Shown: piece by piece, positions 16,313 to 17,340 of the stretch
Numbering within the stretch: the first letter of the stretch is position 1
Layout of the letters: each line of letters opens with the position of its first letter
NCBI GenBank assembly: GCA_964016885.1
Contig: OZ024757.1
Location: forward strand, 4,836,001 to 4,900,000
Length of the DNA: 64,000 nt
DNA from: Eledone cirrhosa
Lineage: Eukaryota
Direction of reading: 5' to 3'
The notes under the pieces: model-generated
What the model was told of the DNA's origin: nothing
The model's input: only the letters and a program-made list of their open reading frames with translations
Databases searched by the model: none
Made by a program: the position numbers and the translations under genes

Positions 16313-17340
16313 ACAAGAGGGAGAATGATATTCTCACGGTCTTCCAGTTTATTCCGAAGTCTGTACAAAAGATTTACTGTTGATTGCATAACTAATCTTT
16401 GGAGATTTTAAACCAAAAAACTAAATTGTAATGGAAAATATCGCCGCTATTTCTAGCAGTTAGAGAGACTACGTAGAGGTTTTATTATTGATGTATAATT
16501 GATATTTTACTGAGTGATACTTTCTGACTTACAATCAATTAAATACGATTGGAACTATGTCTGAAGGTATTAAATTATATCAGGGACTTTTAACGCATGA
16601 CACCGGTACGAGAGTTGATACATTCCGAACGACACCCGAGTACCTGCTGTCTTCATTATAACTTTAATTAATCTAATTATATCTTGTGTAACAATTATAT
16701 ATATATATATATACACAATTTTAATTACCCGACATCAGTCTTACACTGTCATATCTATTCTTACTTTACAATTGTGTCTACTAAGAGTTCCATTACAATC
16801 TGTAGTAGTAAAACTACTATTTCACCAGAACATCTGCTATCAGTCATTTATAGACAATATATATATTTTAGACCACATATCAACCTAATATATATATATT
16901 TCCTATCAAATCTGTAGCTAAAGACAAAGTCAGCCTCACTACTTCATTCTGACAAGATATCAATTTATGACTAAAGATGAAGAAGATACACCAACGTTAA
17001 TGTCGTGAAATAAAGCTGATAACATTGAAACTTCTAATTTGATAACAAAGAGATTATTTCTTTGGTTAGTAAAAACTAACAACACAACACATTGATTATA
17101 TCTGAAGGAGGTAAGTTGACAAAGATTTACTTAATGTCTATATTAATGTGTGTAAATAATATAATTATGTGAACCATACAACGACCCAGTAATTAACCAG
17201 ATTCCACTGTTACATGTGATATAAAATATATTGTTATCATGACTGTCTTTATTATTTAAATTACCGCCGTCTATTTAATTATGTGGTTCACTACCTTACA
17301 TTATAAAATATAGTTTATATTTAACTGTACCTTGTTATTG
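16313..17340 (+). promoter_or_regulatory. Cassette X: putative promoter plus non-coding first exon (~16737-17110) of ZNF C
   Basis: (TA)n at 16696-16712, Inr-like TCAGTC 16735-16740, uORF 16967-17008, donor GAG|GTAAGT at 17110/17111; near-identical reverse complement at 62165-63131. Confidence 0.55.

Follow-up and report, generated by a model that had tools for sequence, protein, structure and literature searches.

A near-uniform predicted first exon ahead of clustered C2H2 zinc-finger genes of Eledone cirrhosa, probably renewed by exchange between paralogs

Results

Zinc-Finger Genes and Copies of X in the Analysed Window

The DNA analysed (hereafter the window) is a 64-kb stretch of contig C18 in the 3.0 Gb genome of E. 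cirrhosa, where the C2H2 zinc-finger (ZNF) genes A, B, C and D are accompanied by copies of a sequence of about 1 kb, called X here. The six copies claimed in a first-pass annotation were all recovered by self-comparison of the window, at about the same places. The complete copy at 16313-17340 (+) heads gene C. Its upstream or promoter region (16313-16736, +) contains a (TA)n run with a predicted TATA box and initiator, the last TATA being some 30 nt upstream of the A in TCAGTC, and is followed by what is predicted to be exon 1 of gene C, non-coding (16737-17110, +, around 375 nt), whose 3' end reads GAG|GTAAGT and which encloses the upstream open reading frame (uORF) MTKDEEDTPTLMS, closed by a stop, at 16967-17008 (+). 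The exon of about 370 nt, the uORF MTKDEE(D/E)TPTLMS* and the donor described earlier are thus present. A second complete copy (62165-63131, -; predicted exon 62820-62441) heads gene D, and its exon is 99.0% identical to that of the forward copy. A third (42887-43642, -) is complete to the donor, being an orphan head with no co-oriented acceptor downstream. These are the only three of the six copies in which the donor is reached, with exon ends at 17110, 42925 and 62441. The remaining ones are a truncated head at 33564-34042 (-) with the promoter and about 30 nt of exon (83%), another at 15552-15845 (-) made of two pieces (15552-15641 and 15785-15845) interrupted by LINE-like DNA, and a 148-nt homologue of the upstream region only (6750-6896, -; 82%) in front of gene A. 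In the interrupted head, which is aimed at gene B 4.3 kb downstream, about 145 nt separate the TA run from the initiator.

The head at 15552-15845 and that at 16313-17340 form a head-to-head pair, and such pairs recur at other loci (L041, L124 and L135), which suggests that inverted duplications took place with their centre upstream of the promoter. A SINE-like repeat, perhaps resembling Nin-domain SINEs, was found at 15840-15990 and at other loci; 45 of its 119 matches are no more than 1 kb away from the start of a head, where about 14 would be expected if uniform, although these copies are not independent.

The predicted intron of gene C (17111-26707, +) contains a LINE open reading frame and further repeats. 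The LINE frame (21280-24384, +) has 1034 codons with endonuclease, reverse transcriptase and PHD finger, gave 8 matches in a protein search, and has decayed relatives at 44.5-49.3 and 55.8-56.5 kb. A remnant of an ISXO2/IS1595-like transposase, which we take to be of Merlin type, lies at 31737-32576 (+). Exon 2 of gene C (26708-27975, +) starts at the acceptor with a 188-nt leader, followed by an ATG at 26896 and a C2H2 array that an in-frame stop interrupts at 27586-27588. In gene D, exon 2 (49750-53044, -; acceptor 53045) has a 375-nt leader, an ATG at 52669 and a frameshifted C2H2 array, so that both genes have broken frames in the present assembly. The acceptors of C and D read TTTCAG|AATACCAG, at 26707/26708 and 53045/53044, and together with the exon ends at 17110 and 62441 they give the distances of 9.6 and 9.4 kb that had been proposed between X and the two acceptors. 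Tandem acceptors 8 nt apart, with the form TTTCAG|AATA[CT]CAG|ATG, occur at 26702-26716 and have been retained by the majority of paralogs; the choice between them would change the context of the upstream ATGs.

Genes A and B (5516-6896 and 9700-11005, -) belong to a second subfamily with a different N-terminus and a diverged piece of the X promoter, in which the initiator motif is fused to the coding exon, apparently with no intron. The initiator-region motif that had been noticed before their ATGs was found as a 32-nt match, at 6368-6399 (-) for gene A, 59 nt ahead of the ATG at 6340, and at 10974-11005 (-) in a similar position for gene B (87.5% identity to X). The motif of this type has 25 exact matches genome-wide.

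Comparison of genes C and D gave identities of 95.8% in the upstream region, 99.0% in the exon and 98.8% in the first 86 nt of the intron, versus 89.9% in the last 200 nt of the intron, 85.1% in the start and leader of exon 2, 79.4% in the N-terminus and 71.0% in the first finger. The statement that X copies are almost identical while the N-termini of C and D are diverged thus holds for the exon of complete copies, but not for partial copies or for the distal promoter.

X and C2H2 Exons across the Genome

Searches with exact patterns gave 315 matches for the donor region and 307 for the initiator region, with none for the reversed controls. These matches are bunched, and at least 16 large contigs are represented among the first 100 places listed for each pattern. 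A sample of 140 stretches of 10 kb, picked around X or acceptor matches, was added to the window, and heads, acceptors and finger arrays were mapped in it. This mapping supersedes an earlier pairing of exact patterns, which was too insensitive (an upstream donor within 20 kb for 20 of 47 acceptors, a downstream one for 12 and an opposite one for 4).

The sample includes 63 complete heads and 67 acceptors. In 46 of the 55 assessable heads, the next feature downstream is a co-oriented acceptor, and of the other nine, one leads to a co-oriented gene of the A/B type, two to a co-oriented head and six to a feature on the opposite strand. Conversely, 57 of 61 assessable acceptors have a co-oriented X directly upstream, at 1.8-17 kb (median 7.9 kb), and 64 of 66 are followed by a co-oriented finger array within 900 nt. 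The genome-wide position of X upstream of, and co-oriented with, C2H2 exons, proposed earlier as a check, was in this way confirmed in the sample. The predicted splice sites are retained, GT being found in 62 of 63 donors and AG in all 65 acceptors scored. Of 78 heads, 65 were scored for core promoter motifs and 13 left out: 55 of the 65 have TCAGTC, to be compared with the initiator consensus TCAKTY, and 48 of the 65 have TATAWA at -26 to -34, although a TA microsatellite yields a TATA easily.

Eight heads have only the first 200 nt in common with X; an AG|GT of their own follows some 14 nt further on, at around 215 nt. Seven of them precede acceptors and open reading frames of 307-623 aa, which at the corresponding loci (L145-L149 and L124) are mostly intact and encode 8-25 fingers. 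The uORF is absent from this short-exon subfamily, and where present it shows no codon-position bias, with 5, 7 and 7 variant alleles at the three codon positions.

Regarding the proteins, many units have long open arrays (up to 815 aa) and others are broken, like C and D. In Pfam searches, the matches of genes C and A were all to finger-type families, as were those of one intact paralog among the 25 of 41 shown, and no effector domain was found among the families listed. The N-terminus gave no candidate homologue in a protein search, and whole proteins matched generic ZNFs, mostly from vertebrates among the matches listed, or generic C2H2 clusters in a protein atlas. A KRAB-ZNF or FiNZ-ZNF identity was rejected, considering these finger-type families and the lack of codon-position bias in the uORF. 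A Rfam search with X gave no match at E<=1, and a known structured non-coding RNA was rejected on this basis.

At the start of the intron, a 115-bp unit is found in numbers that range from one copy to an array of 47 copies with 96% identity (L072:3969-9373), with 1-4 units behind many heads. It is a possible recombination boundary adjoining the uniform tract.

The assembled contigs of four out of six sequencing runs from three studies were placed on 16320-28100. No joint between donor and acceptor appears among the 15 of 999 joints displayed, a table dominated by repeats, and this speaks neither for nor against splicing. In run X4 the summed contig depth was 807 on the exon bin and 47 on both neighbours, and in run X1 it was high on all three, contig depth being a quantity that cannot rank the parts of a gene, and we give these values no weight.

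Divergence of the Exon and of the Gene Bodies

Divergence was measured on a sample of 56 units, of which 3 were lost at the edges of the stretches and 30 of the remaining 53 were used. The mean pairwise difference among these 30 units was 4.6% in exon 1, compared with 12.9% in the proximal promoter, 11.5% at the intron end, 13.8% in the leader of exon 2 and 15.9% in the N-terminus. The first-pass annotation had proposed a comparison between the trees of X and of the ZNF genes, and these trees are discordant. The tree of the downstream part (the body) shows several deep and well-supported clades, whereas in the exon tree 37 of 43 rows collapse to a near-star, from which a single subfamily, located close to where C18 begins, stands apart. 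When the exon and donor tract was forced onto the supported body clades the cost was 111 lnL units (SH p=0.0011), the units not being independent, as many are recent duplicates, and the clades having been drawn after the trees were viewed. In simulations of slower but tree-like evolution, the three distance ratios observed were reached in 0 of 200 replicates with either of two gamma-shape settings. The alignments for the SH test, the simulations and the choice between branch-length models (see below) had 40 rows, with the coding bases of short-leader genes trimmed and 3 near-identical tandem copies dropped. These results show that the history of the exon differs from that of the gene bodies and is shallower.

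Comparison of distances between clades, in which the downstream part includes coding bases for short-leader genes, gave the same picture at a single place. At C18:4.9-5.9 Mb, the heads of D-type genes are 1.2% from the neighbouring C-type heads and 3.2% from D-type heads elsewhere, while their bodies are 16% from the neighbouring C-type bodies and 8% from D-type bodies on other contigs. In recent clades, the rate of the exon is 0.6-1.0 times the downstream rate. Some tree signal remains in the exon, since the subfamily at the tip of C18 is 7-8% away and exon distance climbs from 1.6% to 5.8% with body distance. AU tests on single clades were weak (p=0.069, 0.048 and 0.47), and model choice was split, with AIC favouring unlinked branch lengths and BIC proportional ones, that is, one scaled tree.

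The uniformity of the exon was also related to the location of the genes and to their integrity. The 20 copies in dense clusters are at 0.9% from the majority sequence and the 17 peripheral ones at 2.5%, the majority sequence leaning to the cluster copies (20 of 37). By contrast, the distance was 1.6% both for the 22 genes that we classed as intact and for the 15 classed as broken. Uniformity therefore tracks the location in clusters and not the integrity of the reading frame, which points to exchange between paralogs, and we consider that X, the likely promoter and first exon before several hundred related ZNF genes, is probably kept uniform by such exchange in dense clusters, with a probability of roughly 0.7.

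The main alternative is that X is a promoter and first exon kept uniform through strong purifying selection alone, for example on a structured leader or on dense factor-binding sites. It is consistent with the preference of BIC for one scaled tree, with the high share of singletons among the exon differences (90 of 131 variant alleles) and with the distances to the C18 tip subfamily, which are 7.0-7.2% for cluster heads and 7.8-8.4% for peripheral ones and could mean a slower rate. On the other side, exon distances between clades equal those within them (1.3% between C27 and D, 1.6% within C27), 111 of the 389 exon columns vary, so that the exon is not saturated, and neither the equal uniformity of broken and intact genes nor the simulations are in agreement with it. 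We regard selection alone as unlikely. Of the two causes put forward in the first-pass annotation, gene conversion or selection, conversion or recombination is hence the best explanation, and pure purifying selection is disfavoured by the trees, the cluster effect and the simulations.

Discussion

The pairing of 46 of 55 heads with an acceptor and a C2H2 array, and of 57 of 61 acceptors with an upstream X, leads us to propose that X is the duplicated 5' end of a two-exon ZNF gene, which would be mostly ordinary. X is likely each gene's own TATA/initiator promoter plus a non-coding first exon, and the order, the strand and the one-to-one pairing with acceptors across the genome fit the earlier reading of X as promoter and leader exon. 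The idea of one shared cassette driving the cluster is not supported, because each gene carries its own copy. RNA polymerase II would start at the A of TCAGTC, behind the TA run, and the predicted exon 1 would be spliced onto the acceptor of exon 2 to give an mRNA with a leader of 550-750 nt containing the 3-11 upstream ATGs counted per unit, followed by a finger-only protein. A cluster of variable first exons, in which many first exons are spliced to one shared constant exon as in vertebrate protocadherins or UGT1, was rejected, because heads alternate with acceptors and arrays, one head for each.

It could also be argued that X is a co-duplicated element that is not transcribed (an enhancer or a boundary) or a non-coding RNA, and that the ZNF genes have a single exon, as the A/B-type genes seem to have, the X exon being known here from sequence only. 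Such an arrangement is quite improbable, given that a canonical donor and a canonical acceptor face each other in 46 units, that homology fades into the gap between them from both sides, and that the short-exon subfamily has a different donor-like site just at the end of its own homology; the negative Rfam search further argues against the RNA.

The proposal that X is itself mobile, either as a mobile element or as a promoter module inserted before existing ZNF exons, would account for the star-like exon tree, for copies in the hundreds and for the nine heads with no acceptor next downstream. It is very improbable and, in our opinion, largely refuted already, since the order and strand relative to acceptors are strict, the edges on the upstream side are ragged, differ between lineages and have no terminus in common, as the lack of visible termini noted earlier had anticipated, and there are no intron-less copies of X joined to exon 2 in the assembly. 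Furthermore, introns are 90-98% homologous over kilobases within lineages, as seen between gene C and its C-lineage paralogs, which means that whole genes were duplicated, and the heads on C3 and C5 that look like orphans belong to segmental duplications longer than 8 kb, in which decayed fingers lie at a distance of about 1 kb. A transposable element of the MITE, SINE or solo LTR class was rejected likewise, considering termini, target site duplications and dispersal independent of the host genes. Finally, that the uniformity is partly an artefact of polishing, with ambiguously mapped reads pulling exon copies to the majority sequence, would agree with the densest clusters being the most uniform, but it is hardly probable when cluster copies retain private differences (0.3-1.5%), the acceptor region, present in just as many copies, lacks such uniformity and whole subfamilies remain distinct.

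Under exchange between paralogs, heads may be replaced by ectopic gene conversion over an exon tract of about 450 nt, or by crossing over within the long intron, rich in repeats, and subsequent re-amplification. Heads would keep being replaced in this manner among cluster members on C18, C27 and C28 while the finger arrays diversify, and copies that leave the clusters, as well as the separate subfamily at the C18 tip, would drift at a rate near that of the other non-coding parts. Besides exchange, selection of moderate strength is probably acting on the head. The property that would make these genes notable is the renewal of a first exon across diverged gene lineages and chromosomes, in such a way that the family would evolve as two modules, one being the head, shared and renewed, and the other the DNA-binding bodies, which diverge.

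A further step, doubtful at present, is that the exchange of the leader exon is itself maintained by selection. Several hundred finger arrays with different specificities would then stand under one interchangeable unit for the control of transcription and translation, either to be switched on jointly, as in a wave against transposons in early embryo or germ line, or to compete equally for one activator, with a random subset expressed per neuron. The difference of 12.9% in the proximal promoter versus 4.6% in the exon would be odd if expression were what is equalised.

Large C2H2 expansions of invertebrates are hard to study, their fingers being repetitive and no gene being important by itself. 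A near-invariant first exon and donor in some 300 genes would provide one expression probe and one target for antisense or CRISPR interference, and such a family-wide target would make the role of these expansions, transposon control versus neural identity, directly testable. Annotation would be corrected as well, since genes of this kind would otherwise be entered as single-exon models, with X treated as an unclassified repeat to be masked.

Comparison with Known Systems

In the accessible text of PMC9068888 and PMC12513265, coleoid C2H2 genes are described as clustered, in numbers from hundreds to thousands, with duplication of full genes. The sole mention of conversion in that of PMC9068888 concerns protocadherin arrays, where it is suspected, and promoter, exon, UTR and conversion do not occur as terms in that of PMC12513265, which reports that octopus C2H2 paralogs of one clade fall in different co-expression modules, an observation that weighs against simple co-regulation. 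No account of X was found in the main texts accessible to us, and gene models in supplements could show the exon.

From what the accessible parts of these reports describe, the FiNZ-ZNF genes on zebrafish chromosome 4 have sharp TATA promoters linked to joint early activation (PMC10547256, bioRxiv 2021.08.09.455629). Like the genes headed by X, they are lineage-specific, clustered poly-C2H2 genes with a small upstream exon, a finger exon and a shared TATA architecture. The upstream exon of FiNZ (and KRAB) genes encodes a domain, whereas X appears non-coding and the proteins of its genes have no more than 30 aa as N-terminus; we do not claim homology between the two systems. Genes of Schistosoma japonicum that share a core promoter and a signal sequence, ascribed to DNA-level recombination at repeats in the available text of PMC3434034, also carry a common 5' module at many loci. 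That module heads unrelated new genes, in contrast to X, which heads one homologous family whose whole units duplicate.

A close precedent is found in the promoters of mouse V1R genes (Stewart and Lane 2007, PMC1955453), where, as far as the accessible text goes, clustered paralogs show broad (>500 bp), unbroken conserved blocks around promoter and transcription start site; gene conversion was suggested there, along with competition on equal terms for shared factors. Both systems have clustered, fast-evolving paralogs with a uniform 5' block. In V1R genes the start sites were mapped by RACE, while the start in X is predicted. Unlike V1R genes, those headed by X encode transcription factors, their uniform tract is mainly a leader exon, and this tract crosses body clades and chromosomes, with the conflict between trees tested.
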